Positions 12,350 to 44,632 of a stretch of 64,000 nucleotides of DNA are shown here, piece after piece; position 1 is the stretch's first letter; every line of letters begins with the position of its first letter. The notes beneath the pieces were generated by a model. That model ran no database searches. It was not told the DNA's origin and saw nothing but the letters and a program-made list of their open reading frames with translations. This stretch comes from Candidatus Woesearchaeota archaeon (GTDB lineage Archaea > Nanobdellota > Nanobdellia > Woesearchaeales > ARS49): the NCBI GenBank assembly GCA_016203305.1, contig JACQMY010000036.1:1886-65885 (forward strand), in the 5' to 3' direction. The translations under genes and the position numbers were made by a program.

Positions 12350-12467
12350 TTCTGATGCACCGTCCGCACGGGGCAAGAAAGGTGCAGTTCTTTATGTCAA
12401 AAACCGCAGGTCATCGCTCGCTCAAGACCAGTGGCTTGGATCATATCCAGTGGTTTTTGATCACACT

Positions 12468-12532
12468 CGGAAATCCACCCAATTGTGGTTTGCGAACGAG
12501 CAAACCACCAGTCTAAGACTGGTGGATTTCCG
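12468..12532. other. multi-hairpin structured element
   Basis: 12-bp perfect outer stem cggaaatccacc/ggtggatttccg enclosing tggtttgc-gaacga-gcaaacca and ccagtc-taa-gactgg. The alternative 9-bp pairing ccaccagtc/gactggtgg is mutually exclusive with it. Confidence 0.5.
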
Positions 12533-12556
12533 ATGTTTAAATGGTGATTTTGGTGG

Positions 12557-13192
12557 TTATCTGGTTAAAACTGCTTGTGCTTGCATATCCCAAAATAGCC
12601 AGAACCGTATTTCTTCTGCTTCAAGTGGAGCATTGCTGGCTGAAAACTTTTGCATTAGCTCCTTAAATTTTAATTGGGAGACGTTGTACGCATCCTCTGC
12701 GGTTTTTCCATTAAGAAGTGCAAGTGCGACTTGATTTGACGCTTCTTTAAACACATTGGCAAGTTCGTCATCTTTTGGTCTGCATTCTTTGTTCTTGTTT
12801 GTGAGAAATGAGAATGGTTCTGTGTAGCCTATATACGCTTTTGTTCCTTTTTTGATCGCGGAAGCTCCAAGTTTTGATGCAGAGTCGCAAGAAAGAGCAT
12901 AGACAACTTTGTCTTTTAGCACTTCTTCATTATCACCACATTTGACTAACGGTTCATCTTTGTGACCTTTAACTGTTTCAGCATCACCATGCCCATTGAG
13001 AAAAACGAATGAAGGATTTTGTTTTGTGAGGAACTTTTCAAATTCTGTTCGGTTTGCTTTATCCGCTGCCAAATCTTTCATTAAGATTCCTTTTTTCTTT
13101 GCTTCCGTAATAACCTCTTTGTTCCATTCAGATAGATATTTTGTTATCTTGTCGTGTTCCGGACGTGTGATTATTGCGTTTTGAGAAGTCAT
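12557..13192 (-). CDS. hypothetical protein; candidate clan-CD (caspase-like) His-Cys protease fold
   Basis: Hydrophobic strand + 'GHG' (H68) and hydrophobic strand + 'SCDS' (C102), spaced 34 residues apart as in caspase/gingipain pairs. Low-confidence inference. Confidence 0.4.
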   Translation of the reverse strand: MTSQNAIITRPEHDKITKYLSEWNKEVITEAKKKGILMKDLAADKANRTEFEKFLTKQNPSFVFLNGHGDAETVKGHKDEPLVKCGDNEEVLKDKVVYALSCDSASKLGASAIKKGTKAYIGYTEPFSFLTNKNKECRPKDDELANVFKEASNQVALALLNGKTAEDAYNVSQLKFKELMQKFSASNAPLEAEEIRFWLFWDMQAQAVLTR

Positions 13193-13194
13193 TT

Positions 13195-13398
13195 TTACAA
13201 TCCTTGTTTGAACGTCCTTAAGTATTTCATTTGTACTTCGATGAATTTCTTTCCAAAATCATCTCCTTTCTTAACGTGATTCATGAGTTCTTCTTTTCCT
13301 AAAGTGCCAAGATTTCCCAAGTTGATTTGAATGTACTCAGGCATGGTCTCCAAACGTGCAAGGATGAGTTTTTTGATGTCAGCTTCGTATTCGGTCAT
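13195..13398 (-). CDS. small hypothetical protein (67 aa)
   Basis: ORF track; overlaps the neighbouring ORFs by 4 nt, giving a three-gene operon. Confidence 0.4.
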   Translation of the reverse strand: MTEYEADIKKLILARLETMPEYIQINLGNLGTLGKEELMNHVKKGDDFGKKFIEVQMKYLRTFKQGL

Positions 13399-13586
13399 AT
13401 GAGCTCCATTTTTTCGAGTTTTTTTAATATGTCTTTGCCGAGAGGAGTGTCATTATGGATTTCGATGTATGCGCTGTCCCAAGTATACGGCTTGTCAATG
13501 TCGCCCACTTTGACAACTACAATAACTTCATTTCGTACATTTTCTGGAAGTTTGGCATAAACCTTTATAAAGCGGTCTTTTGACAT
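13395..13586 (-). CDS. small hypothetical protein (63 aa), first gene of the three-gene operon
   Basis: ORF track; TTTATAAA box about 25 nt upstream on its own strand. Confidence 0.4.
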   Translation of the reverse strand: MSKDRFIKVYAKLPENVRNEVIVVVKVGDIDKPYTWDSAYIEIHNDTPLGKDILKKLEKMELI

Positions 13587-13849
13587 CAGGTGTTGCCTTC
13601 CTTATGCGTGTTTATAAAGATGCCGTACGCTAAATATATACCTTTCTGTTGTCCAATTTGCATGCGTTCTCTGGTTGTGCTATATGCAGCAAAAAATGCG
13701 CATCAGTTATAAAAAATGTTGCGTGACTTGGACCAGAGTTGCTATGCGCCGTCCGGGCGGCTTATGTAAGGGACAAAAGAGGCGGTAGATTTATTTCAGA
13801 AACTATTATATGAGTTTGAATAGTGGTTTGAGTATTAATATTTTGTGCA

Positions 13850-15001
13850 CTATTTGAGTTTGATGAATCCATCTTTTTCTTCGTATTTCATGCCTGCATT
13901 TTTCATTTCCTTCTTTAAGAGCTTCAGATTTTGCGCCTGTACTGCTTTGCCTTTTTCTTCCCACATCGTGTGGTCTTTACCGAGTTTCTTGAGAACTTGC
14001 GCTTTCAAAGAGTAATAGTCAAAATGGGGAATGTTTCGTTTTTCTGCATATTTGATGCACTCATCAATGGTTTTGAGTGCGCTTTCGGGATTTCCTTCAT
14101 TCAGTTCAACTTGTGCTTTGTAAAGATGCGCGTGCGGATTCTCAGGGTTCTCCTGCAATAACCGGCGAATGAGCTGTTTCGCTTCCTCTGTTCTTTTCAG
14201 AACAAGAAGGCATTCTACTTTCATCCCTTTTACCATTTCTTTTATTTGTGGTTCGAGCGATTCCTCTTTGACGGCTCTGAGTAGGTAGAGTGCTTCTTCA
14301 AATCTCTCTTTGAGCATGAACTCATTGACTTTTTCCAATGTGTCATTTAATTGAGCCAAGGGATGGCAAGGAGGGATTTCTTCTATCCAGAATTTTTTCA
14401 TGAAATTGTCAGTCCGCTTTTTATCAATTCTTCTTGCGATGTCGATGAGCGATTGGTATTCCTTCCCCAACCAATAATGGAGTTGGGCTTTCATGATGAC
14501 CGGATCAAACCAATCAGGAGCCATTTTCAAGACCACGTCCACTTTTTTCAAAGCGGCATCATATTCTTCCTTGAGAATGTGCTGATGTACGATTGAGAGA
14601 AGGAACTCTGGATTTTCCGGATTGATATCCATTAATCTTGCGGAGTATTCTTGCGCCTCTTTGGACTGGCCAAGAGCAACATGCGCTTCAATGATGAGTG
14701 ATAACGCTTCTTCATCCTCAGGGATGATATTGAGGACTTTCTGCAATAACGGGATCGCTTTGGAGTACTTTCTTTTATCCATCAATGAGAGTGCATCTTC
14801 TATCAGATCGTCAGGTTCTGCGTAATCTTCCTCAAATTCAAACTCCCACGTTGTACTGTGTTTCTTATTATACCAACCATTGAATTCTTCTAATTGTTTT
14901 CTCTCTTCGGCATCATTTTGGGGCAGGGGTTTGTCTCTGAAGTACTCTTTCCATGCTTGTCTGAGCTGCCTTTGTTCCGCATTAAAATCTGATTTGGTCA
15001 T
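13850..15001 (-). CDS. TPR-repeat protein
   Basis: Multiple 34-aa helical repeats with the W-LG-Y/A-F-A-P tetratricopeptide pattern. Confidence 0.65.
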   Translation of the reverse strand: MTKSDFNAEQRQLRQAWKEYFRDKPLPQNDAEERKQLEEFNGWYNKKHSTTWEFEFEEDYAEPDDLIEDALSLMDKRKYSKAIPLLQKVLNIIPEDEEALSLIIEAHVALGQSKEAQEYSARLMDINPENPEFLLSIVHQHILKEEYDAALKKVDVVLKMAPDWFDPVIMKAQLHYWLGKEYQSLIDIARRIDKKRTDNFMKKFWIEEIPPCHPLAQLNDTLEKVNEFMLKERFEEALYLLRAVKEESLEPQIKEMVKGMKVECLLVLKRTEEAKQLIRRLLQENPENPHAHLYKAQVELNEGNPESALKTIDECIKYAEKRNIPHFDYYSLKAQVLKKLGKDHTMWEEKGKAVQAQNLKLLKKEMKNAGMKYEEKDGFIKLK

Positions 15002-15003
15002 TT

Positions 15004-15507
15004 TTATTCCTGTAGAACAGTTTTCGTTTTCTCAATAAAAGCCTTTGTTTGTTCGTATAATGCCCTAATTTTCCCTGCTTCAAAGCGAGTTTCTGTCCCG
15101 TACTGGAAGCGTTCCCGTAATTCAACAATATCGGCTGTTTCAAGCTTGTCTCGTTGGTCTGTTGCGAATATGCTATGCAGTTCTTCTTTGGTTAGACCAA
15201 TTTTACCTTGTTCAATGAGAACTTCTATTGTGGCGAACGTGCATTCTTGGTTCCTGCTCTCATAGCCAAATTTGCAGAGAATTGCGAGTAAACAATGATA
15301 CTGAGCGTAGAATGAAGCGTGAACGGCCCAATCAGTATATCCGCCTTTGATCAGGTGTTGCATTGCGGCAAGATTATGCTCTGCTTTCTTGACGTGGTCA
15401 CTCGCAGTATCTGTGTCTGGCTTTACTTCTCGAAGTCCGCGATGCTTTCTACCTTCTTTCTCAGCTTTCTTCAAGCACCAGTTGAGCTTGTTTTCCGCGT
15501 GCGTCAT
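15004..15507 (-). CDS. HEPN-domain protein (toxin-like)
   Basis: 'HASFYAQYHCLLAIL' resembles the HEPN conserved helix. Overlaps the upstream MNT gene by 4 nt. Confidence 0.65.
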   Translation of the reverse strand: MTHAENKLNWCLKKAEKEGRKHRGLREVKPDTDTASDHVKKAEHNLAAMQHLIKGGYTDWAVHASFYAQYHCLLAILCKFGYESRNQECTFATIEVLIEQGKIGLTKEELHSIFATDQRDKLETADIVELRERFQYGTETRFEAGKIRALYEQTKAFIEKTKTVLQE

Positions 15508-16091
15508 GCTGCCTCTTTCACCGCATTGATGATAATGTCATGTCCCCAGAGGACTTTGCCTGTTTTAAGGATTTCTAAAATGACTTTGTCAGGCTTCTTA
15601 AAGTTTTTGACGAGGTCATCGAACGTTTGCACGACGTCTTGAATCGGCTTGGTCTTTAATGCCCGCAATTCGTCAAGCGCTTTTTTATATGCCTCGTACT
15701 TTTTGTCTTCCAAGATGAACAAGACATCAATATCTCCTGCTTTCTCGCCTTTTTCAAGAACCGACCCAAAGAGCGCTGCTGCCTTTGCAAATGGGCGCAA
15801 TCTTTCCAAGTCTTTTGCTTGGGCTTTGGCATAGGGAAGCGCGATCTCTTCAACGAGCGCGAGGTTTGCAGCTATTCTTGCAACCTCTGAGTCGAAATTG
15901 AGCTGAAAGAAGACTGCATTTCCCAGTTTTTCGAATTTCAAAATGCCTTGTTTTTCCAATCGATTCAGAAGCTTATGCATCCCTTTTGGAGTGATTCCTA
16001 CCTTCTTTGCAAGCTGGTTTATGCTGTACTTTTCGTGAAAATGCCTCACAAGGAAGTTCAGCGTTTTCAATTCGTTTTGCGTCAAAGACAT
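15504..16091 (-). CDS. minimal nucleotidyltransferase (MNT) with an N-terminal wHTH
   Basis: 'LFGSVLEKGEKAGDIDVLFIL' (GS...DxD) nucleotidyltransferase motif. N-terminal HTH 'INQLAKKVGITPKGMHKLLNRLEKQG'. Confidence 0.7.
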   Translation of the reverse strand: MSLTQNELKTLNFLVRHFHEKYSINQLAKKVGITPKGMHKLLNRLEKQGILKFEKLGNAVFFQLNFDSEVARIAANLALVEEIALPYAKAQAKDLERLRPFAKAAALFGSVLEKGEKAGDIDVLFILEDKKYEAYKKALDELRALKTKPIQDVVQTFDDLVKNFKKPDKVILEILKTGKVLWGHDIIINAVKEAA

Positions 16092-16343
16092 ATGAACCCA
16101 AGGTATATGATTGAATACTTGAAGTATATAAAGCTTTCTAGGGGCAAATCATGTACCTTAAGTACATAAATATGTACTGGGCGTGAATAGCCTTCGTTCA
16201 CCCGAGCGAACAACTGTTCACCAAAGGACACTACAGACGGGACCAATCGATACTATTCGTAGCATAACGCAGCGCATAAGAACTCCCAGTTCCCATATGA
16301 GAACCAAAGGTTCCTGCCAAGCTCGCAAAGTGCGAGCAAGATT

Positions 16344-17201
16344 TTACTGAAAGATATACTTGTGTTTTCCTTCCAAGGAGAGTTTGAAGTTATACTTGTT
16401 CAACATCAAAATTAAATCGACTTCTTCAGAAAAAATATCGCGATTCTCTCTTTGCAGGAGATCGGCAAGAAAGCAGAACGTGAGATATGCGATAAAACGA
16501 TCTAACAATCGCGCATGCACCCTTGCTTTTTCCACACTCTCTATCGGCCGTCTGTAATAAAGTGTTCGCATCTTCTCAACAGATCTTTTGTCCTTCAAGT
16601 CAATCTTGATTAGGTGTTCAATTATGTCAAGATCTTCAGCTGCTCTCCGTCGATTTATGACCGAATGGAATGCCGTTCGGGATTGTTCGATAAGATGATA
16701 GATAAAACTGTACTGGTAGTAATTTGGAATTAATTCTTCGGATATTTGCAAGCTTTTGCTCAGAATCTTAGGCAGGTAATTGTGCAAAAGAACGCTAAAT
16801 GTTCTTGTTCTCATAAAATCTGTCAGCCGTCCATGTTTAAACGCTAAATTTGACAAACGAATGAATCCCGGCTCGTCATCTTTCAACTTCCAGGTATATG
16901 TATCAAGAAAGCCCTTCACAGTGAACACATCTTGGCGTTCTAAATAACCCAAATCAGCAAGCGCTTGTAAATGCTCACGAACCTCCTTTGTAGAACGAAT
17001 GTGAAACGCATCACGAACGTGAAAGTGAACATCCGCTGTTGGAACGTGCTTGAATGGATGCTCTCTAGCAAGATAAATCAAAATGTTCAACTTGGTTTCC
17101 CAAGGACCATAACCTTTGCCCCGCTCAAGCTTCTCAAACAACGGCTTTTTTGGCCTCTTCTTGCCGATTACTCTCTTACCTGCCCATTTGTGCTGTCGCA
17201 A
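16344..17201 (-). CDS. hypothetical protein with a probable wHTH
   Basis: ORF track; 'LQALADLGYLER' wHTH-like segment. Stem-loop gctcgca-aag-tgcgagc lies just downstream (16318-16334). Confidence 0.4.
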   Translation of the reverse strand: MRQHKWAGKRVIGKKRPKKPLFEKLERGKGYGPWETKLNILIYLAREHPFKHVPTADVHFHVRDAFHIRSTKEVREHLQALADLGYLERQDVFTVKGFLDTYTWKLKDDEPGFIRLSNLAFKHGRLTDFMRTRTFSVLLHNYLPKILSKSLQISEELIPNYYQYSFIYHLIEQSRTAFHSVINRRRAAEDLDIIEHLIKIDLKDKRSVEKMRTLYYRRPIESVEKARVHARLLDRFIAYLTFCFLADLLQRENRDIFSEEVDLILMLNKYNFKLSLEGKHKYIFQ

Positions 17202-17470
17202 ATTCCCGCCCCTTCCTAGTTCAAGAAAGACTGGTTCTTTTAAGCTTTCCCTTCATAAACACGAGGGGTTTCTCCACAAAACAAACCCCTTGTTCATTCT
17301 GTGAGAAAATAACAAAATACTCCGGACGCCACATAAGTATTATTGGATAAGGAATTAGAAAAACACCTGCCCGAATGGTACATTCTCCTACGCAGAGCTA
17401 TCTACGAACAACCCCAAAGCGAACAGGCACGTCCAGAAGCAGCAGCAGACAATCTTGACCAAACAAAACA

Positions 17471-17848
17471 GTGCGAGGTGGAAACATGACAAGCGGAAAA
17501 ACCATATGGGATTATGTGCCAGGAGAAATGGCAAAAAGGTTTGAGGCAGTTGCTAAGAAGGTGAGCTACAAAAAAAGCACTGATCTGGACGACAAGCCGG
17601 TTTTTCTCGCCAGCGTCGATTTGGAAAAAATCGACATGGACGACTTTGCGTATTATTGGGCGTTCACCCTGGGCAAAGACTTCGAGAACCCGCCACATAT
17701 GAACTTCTGGAGACACCAACTCACGCCAGAAGAGCTCAGAGCGTGGGATAAAGCATGGGAAAAAGCGGTTCTGCAAAGAAAACAGGAAATTGAGCGTATT
17801 CAGCATCTTTTGATGGAGTTCAACAAGAAGGCAACAGCTAAACAATGA
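17471..17848 (+). CDS. hypothetical protein
   Basis: ORF track; 4-nt overlap with the next gene. Confidence 0.4.
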   Translation: MRGGNMTSGKTIWDYVPGEMAKRFEAVAKKVSYKKSTDLDDKPVFLASVDLEKIDMDDFAYYWAFTLGKDFENPPHMNFWRHQLTPEELRAWDKAWEKAVLQRKQEIERIQHLLMEFNKKATAKQ

Positions 17849-18618
17849 CTGAACTTGCGCCTCCAGTCAAGGGCGAGGATCACAAGGAGTATTATCGGAA
17901 GCTTAAAGCGTGGCAGTTGCAAGACCGCGAAAGACGCTTCTACTTGCAATACTCCTTGCAAAACCCCCTAAGCTCAAAACGCCCTGAAGTAGCGAACGCA
18001 AAGGAGCGAGAGATTTGGCGAACTATGTTTTTCCAAAGATTCGGGAAAAACCGGCTGATGGAGCTCATCCAAGAATACGTTATTCCTTGCAGTGAGGTAG
18101 AACCAGAATTGCAGCACGTTCTCACCGATGACCTGCTCATCAGCTGCATCGGAAAATGGCTCAGAAGATACAACAAAGTACGCGCAACAGAACTCGGCGG
18201 CAACCAATTCAAGTATTATTTGGTTAAAGAGAATTGGAAACGAGAAAGCGCAAACCATTTGATATGGAAATTCGAACTTAAAAGACTTTTTAACTGCCAA
18301 ATCGAGCAACACGATAACGATACTCAAGGACGTTTCGACGCGGTTTTGAAGAAAAACGGCAAAACGATCATCATTGAGATTGTGTGCAAACGACAAAGCG
18401 TCAATCAGGCCTTGATCGATAAACTGCTCATCAAAGCGCCAGAAATAGAACGCAAAGGATATTTCGTTGTGCTCGCCCCGCAAAGAATCCACAAATACCT
18501 CAAAGGCGTTGAAGACGGACTACCTGGAACCATACACCTAACTGACTCAAAAAATATTTTATCACTACTCGATACCTTAGTTAACGGCCGGGAAGTTCAG
18601 AACGCCGAATCGGCGTGA
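17845..18618 (+). CDS. hypothetical protein with a candidate PD-(D/E)xK nuclease motif
   Basis: 'GRFDAVL...KTIIIEIVCK' gives a D ... E-x-K arrangement on beta strands. Confidence 0.4.
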   Translation: MTELAPPVKGEDHKEYYRKLKAWQLQDRERRFYLQYSLQNPLSSKRPEVANAKEREIWRTMFFQRFGKNRLMELIQEYVIPCSEVEPELQHVLTDDLLISCIGKWLRRYNKVRATELGGNQFKYYLVKENWKRESANHLIWKFELKRLFNCQIEQHDNDTQGRFDAVLKKNGKTIIIEIVCKRQSVNQALIDKLLIKAPEIERKGYFVVLAPQRIHKYLKGVEDGLPGTIHLTDSKNILSLLDTLVNGREVQNAESA

Positions 18619-18748
18619 CACCTGTTGAAACTCACTATTGCTTGGACGCTTGGAAAGAACAGCTAACCAAACCAGCCCACAAGGCGAATATTTTCTACAT
18701 ATCAACGTCGAATGCTAATCAAAACCAAGAAGTCAGGGGTCGTCGTTG

Positions 18749-20359
18749 CTAGATTTTCAAAGGTTTGTTTTCAGCATAGTTAATTCCAGATTCTCTGTAA
18801 AACTCTCTAGTAGTTTCGGGGTCGCCATTAAGTTTTTTGAATGATTCTCTTACATGGGCAATTTTTTCTCTTATATCTTTATCAGGAATTTCGCCGAAAC
18901 TATTTGGATTATCATTGTGTCCGTTAATAAGGGGTTCTTGGTAAGTGTGAACAACTACTCTTTTTCTTCCATTAAATTCTACTTTTGGAATGAAGTATGT
19001 TACTATTTGAGTTCGCGTATCAATTTCTTTATCGGCAGTAAAATGGGGGTAAGCAGTTAAGTACAGATTCCCCTGTTCGTGAAGAATGTTATAAGCCTGC
19101 CATCGTTCATGATCAGAATGATGCTCATGTTGATCTAAAAATCCGATTACTTTTGTAACCGTTTCAATCGGAACTGTTAAGTCTGAATGTGATGGAGAGT
19201 GCATATCAACAATCATTTTGTAAGGAATTACACCTAAACCATAAGCAAGTTTTGATATTCTTCTCAATTTTTCAATGCTCCATGCCATGTCATCTCTTTG
19301 AAAATTGATTCCTTCCTGTAAGGGCATTTGAAGATGGATTGTAATTCCGGCGCTTTCAAGTTTATCTACTGCCATTCTTGCTTCTGGTGCTGATAGTTGA
19401 TAGTCGTCTGTAACATGAGCATTGATGTAGACTTGCTTACCTGTTTCACTTTCAAAATCTTGTAACATTTGCACAAATTCATGATCTATTCTATACCACA
19501 TTCCCTGAAAGACAGAAGACGTGCACATCCTAACAACTTTTACGTGCTCTGCTTGTGTATATTGCTCAAGAATCTTTTTAAGAGCAGAATTTGAAAATAA
19601 GGTTGGCTCTCCGCCACTTATGACAATAGTGTCCACTTCTTGATTTTGATTGAGCCATTGCGTAAGGAGTTCTGCTTGTCTTTCTGCGCGTTCTTCTTGA
19701 AGATTAAGTTGTTTTTTAATTTGTGCATATTCAGGATAAACTTCAGCAAGGGCAGATAATGCGGTTCTTACCATTGAGCCCTTGTAACAACCATCACACC
19801 CAATATGGCAGGCCTCAGTAATATTTGCTAAAACTGCGTAGCTAAATTTTCTTGTCGCCAGATAAGTTTCATTTTCATTGCCATCAATAGCAACAACTCT
19901 ATCCATTCCTCTGAAAATTCCATAAGGATCCATACTGTGCCTCCAATTTCCAGAGAATTTGTCTGAGCGAGATGGAATGTATTTTTTTAAGGTGGTATCG
20001 CCCATTACTGCATTATACGGTAAAATACTCATTACTCTTCCAACTTTAACTGCCGCTTCTGCTGCTTCTACATATTGTTCTAAACCGAGAAGTCTTAGGT
20101 GCTCTGATTTTGTCGCTCTAAAGAGTAATTGAAATCTTTGCGAAGCCCAAAGTTGTTCGGGAGATAACCGTAGTTGTTGGCTAACAACATCAAGAATAGA
20201 GTCTAATGTTTGGTTTTCTTTGCTTGTTCCTAAGTATCTTTCTCTTGCTTGATTGAAGAAGTCTCTAGCAGAATGTCCTCCTAGTTCTTGCTCTAAGTTT
20301 CCTAAATTCAATTCTGATTCTACCATTTTCCATCGTGGAGTAGTGTTATGTTTATTCAT
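18749..20359 (-). CDS. radical SAM protein of the KamA family (lysine 2,3-aminomutase-like)
   Basis: 'CHIGCDGC' (CxxxCxxC). 'IVISGGEPTL' (KamA 'SGGDPL'-like). 'LESAGITIHLQMPLQEGINF' resembles the KamA AG(I/V)...NQ.VLL.GVND block. Has a long N-terminal extension. Confidence 0.6.
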   Translation of the reverse strand: MNKHNTTPRWKMVESELNLGNLEQELGGHSARDFFNQARERYLGTSKENQTLDSILDVVSQQLRLSPEQLWASQRFQLLFRATKSEHLRLLGLEQYVEAAEAAVKVGRVMSILPYNAVMGDTTLKKYIPSRSDKFSGNWRHSMDPYGIFRGMDRVVAIDGNENETYLATRKFSYAVLANITEACHIGCDGCYKGSMVRTALSALAEVYPEYAQIKKQLNLQEERAERQAELLTQWLNQNQEVDTIVISGGEPTLFSNSALKKILEQYTQAEHVKVVRMCTSSVFQGMWYRIDHEFVQMLQDFESETGKQVYINAHVTDDYQLSAPEARMAVDKLESAGITIHLQMPLQEGINFQRDDMAWSIEKLRRISKLAYGLGVIPYKMIVDMHSPSHSDLTVPIETVTKVIGFLDQHEHHSDHERWQAYNILHEQGNLYLTAYPHFTADKEIDTRTQIVTYFIPKVEFNGRKRVVVHTYQEPLINGHNDNPNSFGEIPDKDIREKIAHVRESFKKLNGDPETTREFYRESGINYAENKPLKI

Positions 20360-20433
20360 ATTTAAAGAGTTGTAGTCTTAATTGAGATGACAAAAGAGAA
20401 AAGTTTAAAAGGAATAGTTAATCCAATATTAGT

Positions 20434-21171
20434 ATGGCTGAACTTGAGGTGCTTGAGGAATTAGGGCTTTCCGAAGCAGAGGCAAAAGTCTATCTCGCTT
20501 TGTTAGAAACAGGATCCACGCTTGCAGGCACGATTATCAAAAAGACGGGCTTGCACCGAGGCACCACTTATCAAATCCTCCAAAGACTGAAAGAAAAGGG
20601 GCTTGTGTCATCGGTAATAAAAGGTAAAAAGCAATACTTTGAGCCAGTAAGTCCTGAAAGGCTCATGGACATCCTAAAGGAAAAACAGGAAAGACTGCAA
20701 GAATTCCTCCCAATTCTAAAAGCGCGCACAGAATTCAGTAAAGACAAACAAGACGTCACCGTGTATTCTGGGATCAGAGGTATTCGATCTGTGCTTGATA
20801 AAATGCTTGAAGAACTCGGTCCGCATGGGGAATATTATGATTTTGGAGTTTCTGGACTATTTCGCAACGTTATAGGTCCGTATTGGGATCTTTGGCAGAA
20901 ACGCAAAAGAAAAAACAACATAAAATCTCACGTTATTTTCAATGAAGAACTCAAAAGAACAAATCCAAAACTCTTGCAAGAGTACTATGGCAAAGCTCGC
21001 TTTCACCCAAAAGAATACGCAAGCATGACCGATACTATGATCTACAAAGATACGGTGATTATGTTCATTTGGACTGCTAAGCCTCCGATAGCAGTCATCA
21101 TTAAAAACAAAGAGAATGCGGAAAGCTACAAAAACCAATTCAGACTGATGTGGAGGTTTGCCAAACCCTAA
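20434..21171 (+). CDS. TrmB-family transcriptional regulator
   Basis: N-terminal 'LGLSEAEAKVYLALLETGSTLAGTI' wHTH typical of TrmB. Confidence 0.65.
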   Translation: MAELEVLEELGLSEAEAKVYLALLETGSTLAGTIIKKTGLHRGTTYQILQRLKEKGLVSSVIKGKKQYFEPVSPERLMDILKEKQERLQEFLPILKARTEFSKDKQDVTVYSGIRGIRSVLDKMLEELGPHGEYYDFGVSGLFRNVIGPYWDLWQKRKRKNNIKSHVIFNEELKRTNPKLLQEYYGKARFHPKEYASMTDTMIYKDTVIMFIWTAKPPIAVIIKNKENAESYKNQFRLMWRFAKP

Positions 21172-21280
21172 GACTCCCCCTGCTTAATTGCACAGTCTGA
21201 AAAGAGCCGTTTCTTGTGCGGTTTACGTGAGAGGATTAGGGTTCATTAATTATATAAACACGTATGTGTTATGGTAGAAT

Positions 21281-21637
21281 ATGGACAAGCTAACAATCGT
21301 AGGAAGAACAAATTGGGAGGGTGGTTTCTATGTCAAATTAAAATCTGAAGAAAAAGTTATGAAAATCATCAAGAAAATTGTTGAAGATCTCGACTCTGAC
21401 TATTTTGTGGATAATCAAGTAATACCAAAAGCATTTTCAAATTATTCTAAATGGAAAGACCAATGGATTCCAATAGTACAAAAGAATTTAAGAATTGATA
21501 TAATTTGTGGAGACAAAATGATCCACCTGATAGTGCACCGATATCCAAGCATTGAATTTGTGAACACTATTCTTGACAAGTACTGCAATTGGGCACAAGT
21601 AAGATACAAAAAGGGACTTGGTCAAGCAAGCAAATGA
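21281..21637 (+). CDS. hypothetical protein
   Basis: ORF track only. Confidence 0.35.
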   Translation: MDKLTIVGRTNWEGGFYVKLKSEEKVMKIIKKIVEDLDSDYFVDNQVIPKAFSNYSKWKDQWIPIVQKNLRIDIICGDKMIHLIVHRYPSIEFVNTILDKYCNWAQVRYKKGLGQASK

Positions 21638-21678
21638 TTTGAACATCCTTTTCGAACCGTCCGTTTGAGCAGAATTTG

Positions 21679-22473
21679 TTAGCGGGTTTCGGTTATTGCT
21701 TTGACTTTATTCACGAACTGCGTAAGCATTTCTGCGGAATCTGACATGCCGCATGCTTCGAGATCTTGGAAGAAATTTTCAGGGGCCAGGAATCTCTTGC
21801 CTTGAGCGGCTGCAACCACCTTAAAATCATCATATCCATATTTGTAAACCAACGGAATCCTGTTAATTGCAGCTATGGCTTTAGAGCAACACCAAAGCGC
21901 ATCAAATTTGAGTAGTGCGGCAGTGAACTTTGCCCGTCCTTTCGTTGCCTTTTGGCATTTATCAGCATTCCATAATGCAAGACCTATCGAATCTTGGATG
22001 AGCTTTTTGGTCGCCCAATCGGGAAACTCTTTCTTTTGAAGATCAGCGACTATTCCTGTTGGGTCGTACAGTACCTTTGCAACCTTCAGGAATTCGAGTT
22101 GTTGATCGATAACCGGATAATGGAGATTTTCCTTGAACGCATGAAGCAAAAATGCAACATTAACAAAACCCAACGTGACATCTATCCCTTCCGGTGTTTT
22201 GAATCCTTTGCCACCAAGAACGAAGTGGCGTTCAAGTTCAGGAAAAATTCTTGCTTCAGACACGGATTGTAATGGGAAATCTTTAGTCAATCGGTTAATG
22301 AGATCAGGAGTTGGGTCTTGTTCCAACTGAACTCCAAAATCATAATCGCTTGTTGAGACAGCAGTTCCTTTAGCACGACTGCCGCCTAAAATAACCGCGG
22401 TGATCTCTTTATGATCTCTTGCCCAATCTATAACTATTCCCGATATATCCATCAAGAGGTTAAATTTAGGCAT
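21679..22473 (-). CDS. Pol-beta superfamily nucleotidyltransferase with a C-terminal helical domain (ANT/LinB-like)
   Basis: 'LGGSRAKGTAVSTSDYDFGV' (GS-x9-DxD) followed by a helical domain of about 150 aa. Confidence 0.6.
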   Translation of the reverse strand: MPKFNLLMDISGIVIDWARDHKEITAVILGGSRAKGTAVSTSDYDFGVQLEQDPTPDLINRLTKDFPLQSVSEARIFPELERHFVLGGKGFKTPEGIDVTLGFVNVAFLLHAFKENLHYPVIDQQLEFLKVAKVLYDPTGIVADLQKKEFPDWATKKLIQDSIGLALWNADKCQKATKGRAKFTAALLKFDALWCCSKAIAAINRIPLVYKYGYDDFKVVAAAQGKRFLAPENFFQDLEACGMSDSAEMLTQFVNKVKAITETR

Positions 22474-22556
22474 GTTACTTAAACTTTTTGCTAGCTCTCG
22501 TGGATGAGAGTCTTTGAGTGAAAAGCTTAATAAGCAGCTTATTCTAAGGGCAAATT

Positions 22557-23420
22557 ATGGGGGATGTTGATATTAGAACTCTTCAAAGAGCAATCGAAGG
22601 TAGTCCGAATGATTTTATTGTGCATCAACAATTAGAAAATGCACTGCGACGTAAGTATGGTGGCTTAGTTGCAGAACAAGATGTTTTGGGTTTTGTCTCT
22701 GATTTCAATGCGCGTATGTTTTACATTGTTGAAACCGAGTCGAGTTACATTATTTTTAACGTTCTCAACATAAGGAATTCACAAGGACACGGACCTTCCA
22801 CTAATGTAACAGTGCAGTGGAGCAAAGGGCTACTTGAAAATGGACATCGCTACTCACAGGATGCTTGGCAAGCGCGTCTGAAAAAGATTGGTTGGGAACT
22901 GCCCGACTCACAATTATGGTTTCACACACTAAGCTCGCTTTACTTATTTCACCGTGGACAACAGGCAGCACTAATCAAAAACATTCGAGATATTTTTCAG
23001 ATATTCATGAAGGTGGGGGCGATGACAGGTTCGCGTGTAACTTCTCAAAGGCTTCCAAACTCCTTCACGCGTTTTAGAGACATCTTTCAGCATAGATATG
23101 ACACAGAATATGAATATTCAATCACCATAGAAGAGACTCATCCTGAAACTAGCGCGCAATTACAATCAGAACGCATTTGGCAAATCACCCGCGAGCAACT
23201 TGAGCTCGTAGCAGGTGCTCTTTTAGGAACAGATCTAAAAACGAAAGAAGAAGTAAAAAAATGGTTCGGCACCGATCTACTAGGGAGAGATCCATTTCCA
23301 TATGATAATCCATCTGAACTTACGACTCGCAATATCATAATAGACAATCTTAACGGTGCAAACTTTAAGAGCGATATAGCACTTGACAAACCCGCTTTTG
23401 GCATCCGATTCTTTCGTTGA
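22557..23420 (+). CDS. hypothetical protein
   Basis: ORF track only. Confidence 0.4.
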   Translation: MGDVDIRTLQRAIEGSPNDFIVHQQLENALRRKYGGLVAEQDVLGFVSDFNARMFYIVETESSYIIFNVLNIRNSQGHGPSTNVTVQWSKGLLENGHRYSQDAWQARLKKIGWELPDSQLWFHTLSSLYLFHRGQQAALIKNIRDIFQIFMKVGAMTGSRVTSQRLPNSFTRFRDIFQHRYDTEYEYSITIEETHPETSAQLQSERIWQITREQLELVAGALLGTDLKTKEEVKKWFGTDLLGRDPFPYDNPSELTTRNIIIDNLNGANFKSDIALDKPAFGIRFFR

Positions 23421-24135
23421 AGCCCCTACATAATTCTTCACCATTTAGGAGGGAGTTTGTCTTGCTCTTCTGTGTGCTCGTTTGAATGTTTTTTGGACTA
23501 TTGATTTTTGTCATGGCCTGTTTTAATTTAGGGCATACTGAATGAGCCGTAGGGTATACGGGTTTCGACTTCTCGTCGATATTTTTAGTATGGCCTACGG
23601 TTGTTGTATTAAGGGGAGGGTATCCGCCAGGGGGAGTGCTTTTTGAGGTGCCATTGGATGTGTTTGCATAGGATAGCTGGTATGCGTGGTTGAATGATGG
23701 CGTGGTATGAACGCTCACAGGCATTGATGGGTGAAGGGAGCGGGGTGCTTGCGTCAGGAGAGGAGAATGCGGGAGGGATATGGCGCAGGATTGTTTGCAG
23801 TGACTGTTGGATGTGAGGAAGACGCATCGGTGTTGGAGTTGGACGATCAAGAGGTATCTTTTGAAGGAGGTGGTCAAAGTGATAGTGGTAGACCAAAGCT
23901 GCTCAAATCGTGCACTTCGTAGTATGTCCTTGAAGAAGCAATAAAGAAAAAGATGAATAATACACGCGCACCGATACTACAAACCCATTCGCACATAAAC
24001 CATGTGCACCTCAAAACCTGTCCATGGTCGATAAACAGCCGCTTGCACACCAAGAATGATCGTGTCGAGGTATGTTGCCTCCCTATGGGAGGCACTCTTA
24101 CCCCCTTTCCCGCGCGCGCATGCGGGAGAGAGGCT

Positions 24136-25395
24136 TTACTTCTTGAGCAGTCGTTCAGCAAGTCCCTTCTTCATGACCTTCTCAACGAGCAGCTTCTGAA
24201 CCTCTGGGTCTTTGACAAGCTCGCTCATCAGGTCGTCTGCGTTCTTACGGTTCTCTTCAAGCTCGATAGCAGCTTTGGTATCAAGCGGCAAGCTGCAACC
24301 ACCGCAGAATTTGAAGTTTGGAGGGTTAATCTCTTTGCAGCGAGGGCATCGTTTGGCTTTAGAACTCTCATTATCTGGTTTTTCTTCCTGCAAGCCATGA
24401 AGTTTGAGTAAAGCATCATCGACGTCCCTGCCGCTCATATGGACGTATACGGCGGCCATGTCTGAGCTTTGCGTCCAGCCAAACATTTCTTTCAATTGTG
24501 CTTCTGTGAGTTTGCTTGCCAATATGGTGGCGCGGGAATGTCTGAAATTGTGCGGGTTCACTTTTTTCTTTATTCCTGCCTTGTCCGCTGCCCGTTGGAT
24601 GGCTTTCATTATAGTGTGGTGTTTGAGTTCGTATGACCATTTGAATTTGTAACCGTCTAATTTGCCGCTTTTTGCAACATTTTTGGTTGTGCCAATCACT
24701 ACCCATAATGCCGCGTTTGGATCGTCTTTGTCAGGATGCTCTGAAAGCCAACGGGATAGATACTGTGAGTACATAATCATGCGCACACGACGCATGCCAG
24801 TCTTGCCATTCACTAAAATAACTGCGCCGTATTTGTCAAAAGAAACGTGCTTCAAACGCAGAGACGCAAGTTCTCCCACGCGACAGCCAGTTTCGAAAAG
24901 GGTGGAGATGAGCGCTTTGTCGCGGATGTGGTCTGCTGAAGAAATCAGCTTTTCAACGTCTTCTTGGGAAAGTAAATCTTCAGGAAGGCGTTCCCTGTCG
25001 GACTTCATTGAGGTTTTGATCCATGCGACGTCTTCGGGGTAGCCCTCTTTTCCTTCCCAACCTTTGACATGTTTGTAGAACCTTTTGAACGAACCAAGAT
25101 AATCAATTCGAGTGTGTTCGGTGTATCCTTTTGCGTTCACTGCTTTGACAATTTGTTCAATATCTTTTCTTGTGAGTTGAGCAAAGTCGTTTTTTGTTAA
25201 TTGTGCGATTTGGTATAATCGTTCCAAGTAAAATAGAATGCGGGGTTTGGTCAAACCTTGAAGTTCTATGAATTCAATGAAGCTAAGAATTGCTTTTTTG
25301 TTTTTTGCGGGAATGTCGCTGTTGTTTAATCGCGTAATGGCTTGTGAGATTTGTTTGTCGTAGTTGTAGATGTCAATTTTCGCGCTTGCCATCAA
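24136..25395 (-). CDS. tyrosine recombinase/integrase with a C-terminal zinc ribbon
   Basis: Catalytic R...HxxR...Y signature ('HNFRHSRAT', 'AAVYVHMSGRD'). C-terminal 'RCPRCKEIN...CGGC'. Adjacent to tRNA-Gly. Confidence 0.85.
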   Translation of the reverse strand: MMASAKIDIYNYDKQISQAITRLNNSDIPAKNKKAILSFIEFIELQGLTKPRILFYLERLYQIAQLTKNDFAQLTRKDIEQIVKAVNAKGYTEHTRIDYLGSFKRFYKHVKGWEGKEGYPEDVAWIKTSMKSDRERLPEDLLSQEDVEKLISSADHIRDKALISTLFETGCRVGELASLRLKHVSFDKYGAVILVNGKTGMRRVRMIMYSQYLSRWLSEHPDKDDPNAALWVVIGTTKNVAKSGKLDGYKFKWSYELKHHTIMKAIQRAADKAGIKKKVNPHNFRHSRATILASKLTEAQLKEMFGWTQSSDMAAVYVHMSGRDVDDALLKLHGLQEEKPDNESSKAKRCPRCKEINPPNFKFCGGCSLPLDTKAAIELEENRKNADDLMSELVKDPEVQKLLVEKVMKKGLAERLLKK

Positions 25396-25454
25396 ATGTA
25401 GAGAAGTGCCCTTTACTTAAATACTTTTCGTTATATCTTAACCCTTAGGTTAAA

Positions 25455-25538
25455 TGCGCCGTCCGAGATTCGAACTCGGGCTACAGCCTCATTGCTTTGC
25501 AATGGCAAGGCAGCGTACTACCGCTATACTAACGGCGC
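25455..25538 (-). tRNA. tRNA-Gly (anticodon GCC) with a 13-nt intron at the canonical 37/38 position
   Basis: Manual fold: acceptor GCGCCGT/ACGGCGC, anticodon stem CTGCC/GGCTG (one U-U mismatch), loop TTGCCA|intron TTGCAAAGCAATG|A, T-arm CCGAG-TTCGAAT-CTCGG. Confidence 0.7.
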
Positions 25539-25822
25539 GAATACAGTGGCAAGAACGCAGTCTGTTTAAAAAGGTTACGAGCGCGAGTGCTCGTCAGCGG
25601 CAAACGCTGCACAACATGGAAACCGCCAACGTTACCTTTGGGCCAATAGCAGAACGCATCAACAATGGAAAAATAGTGCGTTCTGCTAATATAGCAAATC
25701 TCACAAAATCCCTTCCAAAATTAATGAGATTTGCTATAAGCTCGCGGTTAAGAGTATGCAAACTCGAGGTCGATGGTTTGACGTAGAAATGTTAATATAC
25801 TTATGCTGCAGTATTCAGGCAG

Positions 25823-26467
25823 ATGTCTGCGAAAACTGAGGTGATTCTCCCAGAAAAATTTCTGGACATATGTTCTCACGATTTCTTAAACGGCATCGTT
25901 CCTATGCTCGCAGCTACTGATATCCTGAAGAAACAAAAGCTCGGAAAACATCAAAAACGCATGATTAACCTAATTCGGGGCAGTGTTCAGACGCTTCACG
26001 AACTCATTAACATTTTTTTTGATGCTGAGCGCATGACCTATGGTTTGAAGACGTTAAAACTTTCGCGGGTGCAAGCAAATAAGGTGGCATCTGCCGCGAT
26101 TCACGATGCAAAGGCGTTTTCAAGCCAGAAAAAAGTACGTTTAAAAAAATCAGTCCCAAAACGGTTTTTTTTAATTGCTGATGAAACTTATCTTGCTAAA
26201 GCGCTCAGTTATGCTTTGAAAAGCGCCATTATGATTGCTCCGGAACGCGGAACAGTGCATATACGCGCACATCAATCAGGCAAGTATGTTGCGCTAAGCA
26301 TCAGCGGGGCGCGCATGGAAACTATAAAGTCATTGTTCAACATGGAGCCTGAAACGCTAAGGCGGTGCAAGGACGCCTCATTGTATGTGGCGAAAAACAT
26401 AATTAAGCTCCATGGGGGAAAGGTGAAAACTGCAAAGGACACTATAACGTTTTTCCTGCGCGCTTAG
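25823..26467 (+). CDS. minimal histidine kinase-like protein (H-box plus HATPase_c, no sensor domain)
   Basis: 'ICSHDFLNGIVPML' H-box. C-terminal 'LYVAKNIIKLHGGKV' G-box-like. Confidence 0.5.
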   Translation: MSAKTEVILPEKFLDICSHDFLNGIVPMLAATDILKKQKLGKHQKRMINLIRGSVQTLHELINIFFDAERMTYGLKTLKLSRVQANKVASAAIHDAKAFSSQKKVRLKKSVPKRFFLIADETYLAKALSYALKSAIMIAPERGTVHIRAHQSGKYVALSISGARMETIKSLFNMEPETLRRCKDASLYVAKNIIKLHGGKVKTAKDTITFFLRA

Positions 26468-26928
26468 TATTCCTTTGTCTCTCCATACACTTTACCAACG
26501 ACCACCCTGCCTGTTGAGACATCAAACCATATGCTTCGCCCCTGGCTACCGCCAACATCTTCCGCCACGATTCGTATGTTTTCAGCATGGAGCTTTTTTC
26601 TGACCGACTTGACATTGTCATTACCAATAGAGTTTTGAATGGTGGGAAACATAGAAGCGCCTCCAAATATTTTCGCAATTATGCTCTTGCAACCACGGGA
26701 TCGCATTTGTTTAACTATGGCATCGAGAGCAGCATAAACGAACCTGAGCGGGTTTTTCTCATGGCTGCTTTTTCGACCAGGGAGGAGTATGTGAGCCAGA
26801 CCCCCGATCTTTTTTCCGGCGTCATAGAGGCATACGACCACGCAGCTTCCCACACCGACGGATTCAAGGATGGCGTTGCCTCCAGCGACTCTGCATTCGG
26901 CGATGTTCACACTGATTTTTTCAGACAT
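26464..26928 (-). CDS. cheD: chemoreceptor glutamine deamidase CheD
   Basis: 'GVGSCVVVCLYD...GGLAHILLP' CheD signature. Start trimmed to the internal Met, giving a minimal overlap with cheC. Confidence 0.8.
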   Translation of the reverse strand: MSEKISVNIAECRVAGGNAILESVGVGSCVVVCLYDAGKKIGGLAHILLPGRKSSHEKNPLRFVYAALDAIVKQMRSRGCKSIIAKIFGGASMFPTIQNSIGNDNVKSVRKKLHAENIRIVAEDVGGSQGRSIWFDVSTGRVVVGKVYGETKEY

Positions 26929-27535
26929 GGGGCGTTCGAACCTTTTCGCGCAAGGAATAATAGAAAGAATCATCGAATAGAACGATCATGTGGAACCGCG
27001 TTTTTTCGTTCCCCATGGAAAAGTCAGTTTTGAAAACGAAAATTCCTTCTGCTCTTGTAGCAAGTTGGGCCAACAGCGTATCAAGAGTTGAACTCAAGCG
27101 ATCGATGCTGATGTCGGGAATGGATTCTATCAGGCGCAACCCGAGGGCCTGCGAAATGAAATCCAGACTCGAGCCGCTCAGGATATTGCCGGTCTCTTTC
27201 AACAGGTCTTTGCGCAGATCATCAAGGTCGTTTCTCTTCTCATGAAGAACTATGTTGGTGAAGGTTAACGCGTCGGCGATAGTTGAGATTAATAGGAAGC
27301 TTCCCACGCGTGCAGGTTTTTTCTTGATAAGCCTGTCAATCCCAAGATAAACCGTCGCCATGACAAGCTCTGGAGAAATATTCTTGGGCATATCTTCAAT
27401 GCGACACCAGCTGAACGACGTTTTAGTTATGACAATCTTTTTCTTAGCGAGTTCGGATAATGCTCTCGCTGCTTGTCGAGCGCTTCCAGATAAGACGCTC
27501 TTCAATGTATCACTCTCTTTTTTCGTCAGTTTCAT
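26921..27535 (-). CDS. cheC: CheY-P phosphatase CheC
   Basis: Two 'E.GN...S' motifs ('ETGNILSGSSL'). Confidence 0.8.
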   Translation of the reverse strand: MKLTKKESDTLKSVLSGSARQAARALSELAKKKIVITKTSFSWCRIEDMPKNISPELVMATVYLGIDRLIKKKPARVGSFLLISTIADALTFTNIVLHEKRNDLDDLRKDLLKETGNILSGSSLDFISQALGLRLIESIPDISIDRLSSTLDTLLAQLATRAEGIFVFKTDFSMGNEKTRFHMIVLFDDSFYYSLREKVRTPHV

Positions 27536-29097: not shown

Positions 29098-29447
29098 TTC
29101 ACACGTTTTAAGTTGAGACTTTTACCATTCAATTCCGCGGCGACGGCCATTTTCAAGACTTTTATCAAGGCTTTAACTGCGATGAAAATGTCACGACTGC
29201 CGTCGAGATCCTTCTTTTGCAATGCGGCCACCAGATTTTTGATATTATCAGAGATCTCTTGGGCAATGATTGCAACGGAGTTGTAACCCATCTGCAAGGA
29301 ACTCCCTCGCAACATGTGATTTAACCGTCTCAATTCCAGAAGGACCTTTTCATCGTAGCTGTTCTTATCCAGCTTTTGCACCGATTTTTTAATGCCGGCG
29401 ATGCATTTTTTCGCTTCCTCTTTGTAGAGTTTTTTGAGGCAGTCCAT
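29094..29447 (-). CDS. free-standing Hpt (histidine phosphotransfer) protein
   Basis: 'NHMLRGSSLQMGY' Hpt motif in a 117-aa helical protein between cheB and cheA. Confidence 0.6.
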   Translation of the reverse strand: MDCLKKLYKEEAKKCIAGIKKSVQKLDKNSYDEKVLLELRRLNHMLRGSSLQMGYNSVAIIAQEISDNIKNLVAALQKKDLDGSRDIFIAVKALIKVLKMAVAAELNGKSLNLKRVK

Positions 29448-29448
29448 G

Positions 29449-30447: not shown

Positions 30448-30800
30448 TTAAGCACCTTTTTGATCGTTTCAATGACTTTTTTCGGTTCGAACGGCTTTCC
30501 AACATATTGTTTCGCCCCGGCACGCAACGCGTCATCAATGGTTTCTTTCTGGCCTGTCGCGCTGATCATGATGACCTTCGCCAGAGAATCAATTTTCATG
30601 ATTTTCTGAAGCGCGGCCAAACCGCTATCTTTCATGACTATATCCAAGAGCACGATGTCTGGCTTCTCCTTTTTGTAGAGTTTTATCGCATCTTCACCAC
30701 TCTCTCCTTCAACAATCTGCTTGTAGCCTCCTTTCATGAGGATGTCTTTTAGAACCGCGCGAATGAATGCGCTATCGTCAACAATAAGTATTTTCGTCAT
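30444..30800 (-). CDS. cheY: chemotaxis response regulator CheY
   Basis: 118-aa receiver: 'ILIVDDS', 'IVLLDIVM', 'KPF'. Confidence 0.85.
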   Translation of the reverse strand: MTKILIVDDSAFIRAVLKDILMKGGYKQIVEGESGEDAIKLYKKEKPDIVLLDIVMKDSGLAALQKIMKIDSLAKVIMISATGQKETIDDALRAGAKQYVGKPFEPKKVIETIKKVLK

Positions 30801-31165
30801 CAGCCAAGCACCTTTTTCACTTCCGTAACTAGTTTCTGTTCCGTGACTGGCTTTGTGATATACGCCTTTACTCCCAATCTCAGCGCTTCATCAACGGTTT
30901 CTTTGGCGCGCACGATGCTTACCACGATGCATTTCACGGCAGGATTTATCTTCTTGAGCGCCCGAAACACATCAAGGCCGGCAGGTTCGCCAGGAAGCCG
31001 CAAATCAAGAAGCACTAAATCAGGCTTTTCTTTCCTGTATTTTTCCACGCCTTCGGCACCATTCTCCGCTTCAATGACATCCGTATAGCCGCCCTTTCGC
31101 AGCAAGTTTATGATAGCTTTTCGTTCAAACATCGAATCCTCAATGGTAAGTATTCTTTTTTTCAT
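30800..31165 (-). CDS. second CheY-like single-domain response regulator
   Basis: Receiver 'RILTIEDS', 'LVLLDLRLPG', 'KP'. Start moved to the internal Met (MKKRIL). The longer ORF 30800..31219 overlaps cheW. Confidence 0.75.
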   Translation of the reverse strand: MKKRILTIEDSMFERKAIINLLRKGGYTDVIEAENGAEGVEKYRKEKPDLVLLDLRLPGEPAGLDVFRALKKINPAVKCIVVSIVRAKETVDEALRLGVKAYITKPVTEQKLVTEVKKVLG

Positions 31166-31742: not shown

Positions 31743-31743
31743 A

Positions 31744-44539: not shown

Positions 44540-44632
44540 TCACGTTCAAACGTCGGAATTCCACCAGCCTGCTGGCTGGCGAAGTTCAAATCTCCTTGCA
44601 TGATGCGGATTAGCGCGAAGCGAATTAAAAAA

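Follow-up and report, generated by a model that had tools for sequence, protein, structure and literature searches.

What occupies the 3' end of the tRNA-Gly gene in a woesearchaeotal contig, and how far does the foreign DNA extend? The question arises in a stretch of 64,000 nucleotides of Candidatus Woesearchaeota archaeon (assembly GCA_016203305.1, contig JACQMY010000036.1), hereafter the window, in which an earlier reading made from the letters alone (the sequence-only reading) had placed an integrated element between positions 13744 and 25465. Our analysis indicates that this segment is very probably a site-specifically integrated mobile element of 11.7 kb, of the class known as cryptic integrated elements. 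This is supported by three tests that are independent of each other: the comparison with relatives that do not have the block, the reconstruction of the attachment site of the free element (attP), and the association of the integrase family with tRNA genes.

The repeat of the tRNA-Gly 3' end, on which the element had been proposed, is confirmed: the 12-mer ATGCGCCGTCCG is present without mismatch at 13744-13755 and at 25454-25465 on the forward strand. Read on the tRNA strand, it is composed of CGG (the final 3 nt of the T stem), ACGGCGC (the 3' strand of the acceptor), A (the discriminator) and T (the first base past the tRNA). As with attL and attR of a tRNA-targeting element, one of the two copies covers the 3' end of a tRNA gene that is itself intact. 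A third copy appears when one mismatch is allowed (ATGCACCGTCCG at 12355-12366, 11/12). Three sites with at most one mismatch compare with 0.09 expected, and none of 100 shuffles reached three; in the 64 kb the copies are only the three of the array, and the worry that the 12-mer might recur at many unrelated sites is thereby removed. For a match that must be anchored at the 3' end of the tRNA and fall on its strand, in the 24 kb towards the integrase, chance predicts 24135/4^12, or about 0.0014, while an unanchored 12-mer from a 70-nt query is expected about 0.09 times and 10-11-mers are at noise level. Attachment (att) sites as short as 8, 11 and 13 bp have been documented in archaea (PMC8371274).

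The same locus was examined in five relatives (L008, L009, L010, L016 and L018), which are Woesearchaeota-type metagenome-assembled genomes whose M16 peptidase is 64-68% identical to that of the window. All five keep the gene order tRNA-Val, M16, M16, tRNA-Gly(GCC), with the tRNA-Gly 45-170 bp past the peptidase stop codon, and at the tRNA-Gly locus nothing in 12355-25453 has a homologue in any of them. The comparison with related genomes that had been recommended therefore comes out in favour of an insertion, and the opposite outcome, relatives carrying the block in synteny and free of repeats, was not encountered. Collinearity with the relatives reaches the peptidase stop codon and a following 'ttct(g)', and ends exactly at the copy at 12355. 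Since synteny ends at 12354/12355 and the outer 11/12 copy stands there, all the foreign DNA amounts to 12355-25453; of the bounds first proposed, the right end and the integrase-bearing unit stand, whereas the foreign DNA goes on beyond the left end to 12355. In L016, a related element with an integrase and a homologue of the 257-aa protein described below lies at 13214-18091, after tRNA-Glu(TTC) and 2 kb from the same peptidase/tRNA-Gly locus; the tRNA-Gly beside it is unoccupied.

When the DNA inside the copy at 13744 is joined to the DNA inside the copy at 25454, the product reads ttgtCCCTTACAT-aagccgccCGGACGGCGCAT-TTAACCTAAGGGTTAAg. It has the layout CCTTACAT-N20-(TT)AACCTAAGGGTT, that is, a half-site, a 20-bp core and a palindrome, and related integrases have a contiguous counterpart just upstream of them: agAACCTTACAT-acggcgcaccccatgcgcat-CGAACCTTAAGTTCG in L139, ttGAACCTAACAT-cggcgtcccttcggaggct-TTGAACCTAAGGTTCAA in L006, and a similar layout in L140 and L023. 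The integrases at these contiguous sites are 50-57% identical to that of the window and have no adjacent tRNA. From the half-site to AACC there are 22 nt in the reconstruction, L139, L006 and L140 (counted by hand). A regular expression, CCT[AT]A[CG][AG]T-N20-24-AACCT[AT]A, was searched in 3.4 Mb and matched only the reconstruction and the integrase-proximal sites of L139, L006/L007 (L007 being the same element as L006), L140 and L023, with 0.25 matches expected by chance; it is absent from the unrearranged window. This test does not depend on the 12-mer, and it shows that 13744 is a true end of the element.

The arms of the site are also conserved in part. The palindrome recurs as (G)AACCTTAAGGTT(C) upstream of the related integrases of L001, L006, L139, L140 and L023, and in L001 it stands after the tRNA of that locus. 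On the other side, the half-site ATGTAAGGG at 13764-13772 (CCCTTACAT on the tRNA strand) is 8 nt from the core, and two 15-nt repeats, TATATGAGTTTGAAT (13807-13821) and TATTTGAGTTTGATG (13851-13865), are putative arm-type binding sites; L006 and L139 have iterated TATAAAGTCT-like motifs in the arm upstream of their half-site. No claim is made of a dyad around the core, where the two att copies form short hairpins in different registers.

The gene next to the tRNA encodes an intact integrase, full length with respect to its homologues. The adjacency had been seen correctly by the sequence-only reading, although the distance to the tRNA 3' end is 62 nt and not 60. The protein is identical to NCBI protein P0001 of 'Candidatus Woesearchaeota archaeon', an exact match that is in NCBI only and comes from the source contig; for the integrase with a TTG start and for the peptidase, exact look-ups returned no match. 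Its residues R171, K197, H281, R284, W306 and Y316, which make up the complete catalytic set (R-K-H-R-W-Y) of a tyrosine recombinase, are invariant in 20 aligned homologues together with C349, C352, C363 and C366. The closest solved structure is XerA of P. abyssi (4a8e). We nevertheless reject the identification as a XerA chromosome-dimer resolvase: the NCBIfam XerA model gives 107 bits against a cutoff of 220, the protein has 418 aa and a zinc ribbon as against about 280 aa, and its homologues stand beside many different tRNAs. A 'suicidal' integrase of the SSV/pTN3 type was rejected as well, the gene being uninterrupted and the att core lying 62 nt upstream of it and not inside.

More than 1500 homologues of the integrase were found. 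Among 60 related loci that were scanned, 24 have a tRNA on the same strand within 600 nt upstream, and in 20 of those 24 the tRNA is 47-92 nt from the integrase match; the tRNAs are diverse, with Glu, Val, Leu, Thr and Ala among them. This tRNA-adjacent distribution is what is expected of the integrase of a mobile element and not of a housekeeping recombinase. In L001 an integrase 75% identical to ours lies 62 nt after tRNA-Leu(CAA), in L016 one that is 38% identical lies 59 nt after an intron-bearing tRNA-Glu(TTC), and L135 has a related integrase beside tRNA-Glu(CTC). L034 has the last 16 nt of its tRNA-Glu repeated at 5.7 kb downstream, and about 70 bp past this repeat there is another, incomplete one. 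In the phage collection, the integrase has its closest counterparts, 36% identical, in integrating pleomorphic viruses of the archaeal Archaeoglobi.

The family has members in other settings. In L139 (7921-11269) and L006 (1221-4526), integrases 56-57% identical to that of the window come directly after a gene for a family-A DNA polymerase, and the contiguous attP-like site is located between the two genes. The genes flanking the integrase of L139 (ZapA, ZapB, RNase Y, RF-1) look bacterial; either integrases of this family may pass between domains, or the contig may have been binned wrongly.

From these observations a mechanism can be proposed, in which the tyrosine integrase would recombine attP with the 3' end of tRNA-Gly(GCC), the attB site. 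The order in attP would be the half-site CCTTACAT, 8 nt, the core CGGACGGCGCAT and the palindrome TTAACCTAAGGGTTAA, each of the two flanking parts with a presumed role in the reaction. The 12 bp shared by attP and attB span the end of the tRNA, and the element would thus restore this end on entering and leave a 12-bp direct repeat behind. Strand exchange would most likely take place within or beside CGGAC, which in the reconstructed attP is flanked by the short inverted arms CGCC and GGCG. For the excised form, the predicted attP junction contains CCCTTACATAAGCCGCCCGGACGGCGCATTTAACCTAAGGGTTAAG. After loss of the 11.7-kb unit, the predicted attB consists of the tRNA ending in GAATCTCGGACGGCGCAT followed by agcaactctgg, and after loss of both units the same end would be followed by cagaactattc. 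The same tRNA end would have been used twice, by the 11.7-kb element, which may still be mobile, and by an integrase-less unit of 1.4 kb. The features are collected in Table 1.

Table 1. Features of the tRNA-Gly locus, in window coordinates and from left to right
Feature	Position	Strand	Evidence or remark
Outermost att copy, CGGACGGTGCAT, 11/12	12355..12366	-	5 nt past the M16 peptidase stop codon, beside conserved host DNA
Integrase-less 1.4-kb unit, three open reading frames (ORFs)	12367..13743	-	absent from relatives
211-aa ORF of the outer unit	12557-13192	-	
67-aa ORF of the outer unit	13195-13398	-	
63-aa ORF of the outer unit	13395-13586	-	
attR core of the 11.7-kb element	13744..13755	-	identical to attL, 12/12
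P arm	13756..13865	.	half-site and two 15-nt repeats
Three-gene operon: winged helix-turn-helix (wHTH) and minimal nucleotidyltransferase (MNT), HEPN, TPR	13850..16091	-	
TPR protein	13850-15001	-	co-oriented, downstream of HEPN
HEPN, 167 aa	15004-15507	-	PF05168
wHTH-MNT, 195 aa	15504-16091	-	PF18765, PF01909; PADLOC PDC-M05A, E 4e-17
285-aa protein, weak wHTH match	16344..17201	-	PF01726, E 0.002
Conserved backbone module, convergent with the integrase gene	17337..18618	+	three ORFs
Small ORF of the module	17337-17486	+	
125-aa ORF of the module	17471-17848	+	
257-aa protein, PD-(D/E)xK-like fold	17845-18618	+	
Radical SAM protein, 536 aa, distantly KamA-like	18749..20359	-	TIGR00238, E 8e-21; PF04055 below cutoff
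TrmB-type wHTH regulator, 245 aa	20434..21171	+	PF01978, E 5e-17
118-aa protein, no family match	21281..21637	+	
Nucleotidyltransferase, Pol-beta superfamily, 264 aa, GS-X10-DxD motif	21679..22473	-	PF18765, PF01909
287-aa protein, no family match	22557..23420	+	
715-bp stretch, no convincing ORF	23421..24135	.	hairpins just past the integrase stop codon; positive GC skew
Tyrosine integrase, 418 aa, ATG start, intact	24136..25392	-	PF00589, E 6e-21; C-terminal four-cysteine zinc ribbon
P' arm palindrome, TTAACCTAAGGGTTAA	25438..25453	.	between tRNA and integrase gene
attL core	25454..25465	-	CGGACGGCGCAT on the tRNA strand; attB side of attL is the tRNA-Gly 3' end
tRNA-Gly(GCC), short intron, 84 nt; integration target	25455..25538	-	ARAGORN; Rfam RF00005, 53 bits
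B recognition element (BRE)/TATA promoter of tRNA-Gly, gtaacc-TTTTTAAA on the minus strand	25565..25578	-	12354-to-25578 join compared with relatives

In the outer unit, 8 nt inside the copy at 12355, AAGAAAGGT at 12375-12383 matches the half-site in 7 of 9 positions, with the spacing of the main P arm; the side of the unit facing the main element has only a degenerate palindrome (8/17). Its three ORFs have no family matches and none of them is an integrase. We read the unit, from its sequence, as a probable decayed remnant or satellite that goes back to a previous use of this site. In the 211-aa ORF, the stretches ...NGHGD... and ...LSCDS... recall the His/Cys dyad of caspase-like proteins, with no family hit at E 0.01.

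It might be argued that the whole of 12355-25465 (13.1 kb) is one composite element with an internal att-like site. Such an element would explain why synteny with the relatives ends at 12354/12355 and not at 13744, and why the 11/12 copy at 12355 has the half-site-like AAGAAAGGT at the same 8-nt spacing; but it is the copy at 13744 that is perfect (12/12), and its inner flank provides an exact CCTTACAT half-site and, once joined to the integrase side, a full attP. Moreover, the 1.4-kb unit turns its degenerate palindrome (8/17) towards the main element and lacks an integrase, and arrays built by reuse of one att site are the documented norm (PMC6563490), all of which makes a composite unlikely. 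A provirus, for example a pleolipovirus-like one, would account for the several ORFs that have no annotation and for an integrase that shares 36% identity with its counterparts in ThalV2 and Geoglobus pleomorphic virus 1. The only PHROG match, however, is a weak and generic one to radical SAM proteins; VP3/VP4-like, capsid, terminase and Rep genes, which ThalV2 has, were not found with PHROGs and Pfam (searches at the level of sequence, which could miss remote folds), and neither the 257-aa family nor the attP junction was found in IMG/VR. We consider a provirus very improbable. That the 12-bp repeat is due to chance, and the block a lineage-specific region beside a resident non-mobile recombinase, which may for instance have come with the local inversion, is hardly credible and already disfavoured: the repeat is indeed short, the composition does not shift, and the tRNA unit is inverted with respect to the relatives, so that a rearrangement did occur at the locus, but against this stand the anchored expectation of about 0.0014, the third copy at 11/12, an attP reconstruction that yields the family-specific pattern CCTTACAT-N-AACCT, homologous integrases that lie beside many different tRNAs, and the score of the window's integrase, 107 bits where the XerA model requires 220.

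Several points weigh against an integrated mobile element. The repeat has just 12 bp, and exact chance pairs of up to 14 bp exist elsewhere in the region (family D3). The shift in composition for which the sequence-only reading had suggested looking is absent, GC and tetranucleotide profiles between 13.7 and 25.5 kb being the same as in the flanks. The collections hold no genome above about 68% peptidase identity, and the 'empty site' is therefore not that of a near-isogenic strain. Neither an excised or circular form nor an attB junction was met in look-ups of the exact protein and of the junctions, which returned nothing beyond the source contig, and no virion, replication or conjugation/transfer genes were recognised among the proteins of the element with Pfam, PHROGs and other family libraries. 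Among related loci, most have no repeat within the available 10 kb, the contigs that hold the closest related elements (L001, L016 and L135) stop short of the far ends of these, and the 11-nt repeat of L083, a candidate family example, was discarded as probably due to chance, with branched-chain amino acid ABC transporter genes between its copies. With these points taken into account, we retain the integrated 11.7-kb element as the very probable reading.

The target gene itself has changed orientation. All five relatives have tRNA-Gly and the peptidase genes on one strand, whereas the window has the tRNA on the other strand, 13 kb off, with its own BRE/TATA promoter. The right synteny breakpoint is 25578|25579, and position 12354 joined to the reverse complement of 25578 gives TAG-ttctggtaacc-TTTTTAAA, in which the spacing from stop codon to TATA is 11-12 nt, as in L008, L009, L016 and L018. 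The promoter and tRNA-Gly may have been flipped as a unit before integration, or the whole 13.2-kb unit may have been flipped afterwards; both orders fit the sequence. An integrase-mediated inversion, in which the distal att copy would recombine with the 5' acceptor strand of the tRNA (a strand that is the core in reverse complement), was considered and rejected, because the TATA box moved with the tRNA whereas that model keeps the promoter beside the peptidase; the model also predicts AT before the tRNA, where TC is found. No inverted copy of the 12-mer or any other inverted repeat is present at the right breakpoint (25579 onward), nor is there an inverted repeat at either breakpoint.

Two more tRNA genes of the window are flipped, the one at 44739-44854 with respect to L016 and L018 and the one at 63100-63203 with respect to L018. 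The positions of all three (25455-25538, 44739-44854, 63100-63203) are conserved and the neighbouring protein genes keep their orientation; at least two independent local inversions are needed to explain this. According to Rfam, three of the four tRNAs of the window have introns, which fits an archaeal genome; the intron-containing tRNAs at 44739-44854 (116 nt) and 63100-63203 (104 nt) were found by Rfam and missed by ARAGORN with default settings.

Within the element, the conserved part besides the integrase is small. The gene for the 257-aa protein is the only other one common to L001, L016 and L135, where its homologues are 58-63% identical and always convergent with the integrase gene. The structure model of the protein (pLDDT 86) resembles PD-(D/E)xK nucleases with a modest Z, and its family is tiny, forming 15 clusters when grouped at 90% identity and two at 50%. 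The TrmB-type regulator has homologues in the related loci L001 and L074. In the 715-bp stretch, only the 80 bp or so next to the integrase stop codon (24053-24135) are conserved, in L016 and L135. Rfam at a permissive threshold returned for the element only the tRNA and a sub-threshold snoRNA-like hit, leaving the 715-bp stretch unmatched.

As for the cargo, the MNT-HEPN-TPR operon and the TrmB regulator had been named correctly, whereas the labels 'KamA-family' and 'ANT/LinB-like' correspond only to distant likenesses below threshold. The MNT and HEPN genes are adjacent and overlap by 4 nt, as in type VII toxin-antitoxin pairs; an Rx4-6H motif was not evident in the HEPN protein when its translation was inspected by eye. 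The operon is probably toxin-antitoxin or defence-like. The radical SAM protein is not assigned to the KamA-family aminomutases, since TIGR00238 gives 74 bits against a cutoff of 199. For the 264-aa nucleotidyltransferase, the MntA model (E 6e-6) is below cutoff and the ANT model is marginal (E 0.009).

The surroundings of the element contain further features. Just outside the right breakpoint, a non-coding stretch forms two consecutive hairpins with perfect 11-bp stems, AGCAGAACGCA/TGCGTTCTGCT at 25648-25687 and AGCAAATCTCA/TGAGATTTGCT at 25693-25736, with no Rfam match. A complete chemotaxis cluster (a HisKA-like protein, CheD, CheC, CheA, CheB, CheY, CheW and a methyl-accepting chemotaxis protein) occupies 25823-33681, between two tRNAs that are merely 150-650 bp apart in relatives. 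On the minus strand, the intron-bearing tRNA at 44739-44854 has its 3' end directly repeated (25/26 nt; 44632-44657 and 44736-44761) 104 bp downstream, with tRNA-like T-arm fragments between and beyond the copies; the arrangement resembles a scar, as if a second tRNA had undergone an integration and deletion of its own. The segment 25579-44738 was tried as an island bounded by a copy of that tRNA's 3' end and was rejected: the only copy is the local one 104 bp away, and the region carries the chemotaxis cluster but lacks an integrase. On the minus strand, 48052-62670 is one ORF with internal repeats, whose product of 4872 aa is similar to a protein of 1035 aa encoded at the corresponding position in L018.

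In its plainest description, the element is a standard tRNA-targeting island, one of a well-known kind, in an under-sampled lineage. A bolder proposal, to which we give only tentative credence and less than an even chance, is that it represents an undescribed family of DPANN-specific integrative elements whose integrases may also flip tRNA gene units in place, namely tRNA-Gly and the tRNAs at 44.7 kb and 63.1 kb. Such a family may be defined by a zinc-ribbon tyrosine integrase, by a three-part attP (half-site, a core of about 20 bp mimicking the tRNA end, palindrome) and by a lineage-restricted nuclease-fold partner, possibly a directionality or maintenance factor. DPANN mobile elements are barely catalogued, and here att sites, ends and a conserved backbone of integrase and nuclease-like-fold gene are given at base resolution; they can guide the search for further elements of this sort, and the integrase with its attP is a candidate pair for genetic tools in lineages that have none. 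The repeated use of one tRNA end and the local inversion of tRNA units also bear on how small genomes rearrange.

In bacteria, tRNA islands are known in which an integrative element and an integrase-less remnant (a cis-mobilisable element) accrete in tandem, as at the ICESt1 locus. The window shows the same succession of tRNA, integrase, cargo, repeat and then an integrase-less unit bounded by a repeat, but in another host domain, with an unrelated integrase family and without a conjugation module. On the side of the cargo, the likeness is to the MNT-HEPN (type VII) toxin-antitoxin systems: in the window, a minimal nucleotidyltransferase with a GS-X10-DID motif and a HEPN protein are likewise encoded next to each other. 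Unlike those pairs, the MNT of the window has an N-terminal wHTH domain and a co-oriented TPR gene follows downstream.

ThalV2 and Geoglobus acetivorans pleomorphic virus 1 (PMC10919331) have integrases that match that of the window over about 90% of its length and at 36% identity, and in them, too, the integrase gene is located at the edge of the element; the related virus AvPV1 integrates in a tRNA-Gly gene with 27-nt repeats. These viruses carry the virion genes VP3/VP4 and a rolling-circle Rep, unlike the element of the window. A very short att site in a tRNA gene is shared with SNJ2-type haloarchaeal elements and other short-att elements (8-13 bp; PMC8371274), although the SNJ2 integrases, compared here by description only, are a halobacterial family that needs co-transcribed accessory ORFs.

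The closest known systems are the archaeal 'cryptic integrated elements' with non-suicidal integrases of the XerA/pNOB8 super-group (Krupovic et al. 2019, PMC6563490; Badel et al. 2021, PMC8371274). As in these elements, integration leaves the integrase gene unbroken and is directed at the 3' end of a tRNA, direct repeats flank the insert and the size is below 20 kb; the cargo likewise includes toxin-antitoxin-like genes, a putative nuclease and regulators, the integrase is the sole signature gene, and tandem arrays form at one att site. The element of the window differs from them in its DPANN (Woesearchaeota) host, its 12-bp core, the zinc ribbon that follows the catalytic tyrosine of its integrase, and its conserved, lineage-restricted partner gene with a predicted nuclease-like fold.

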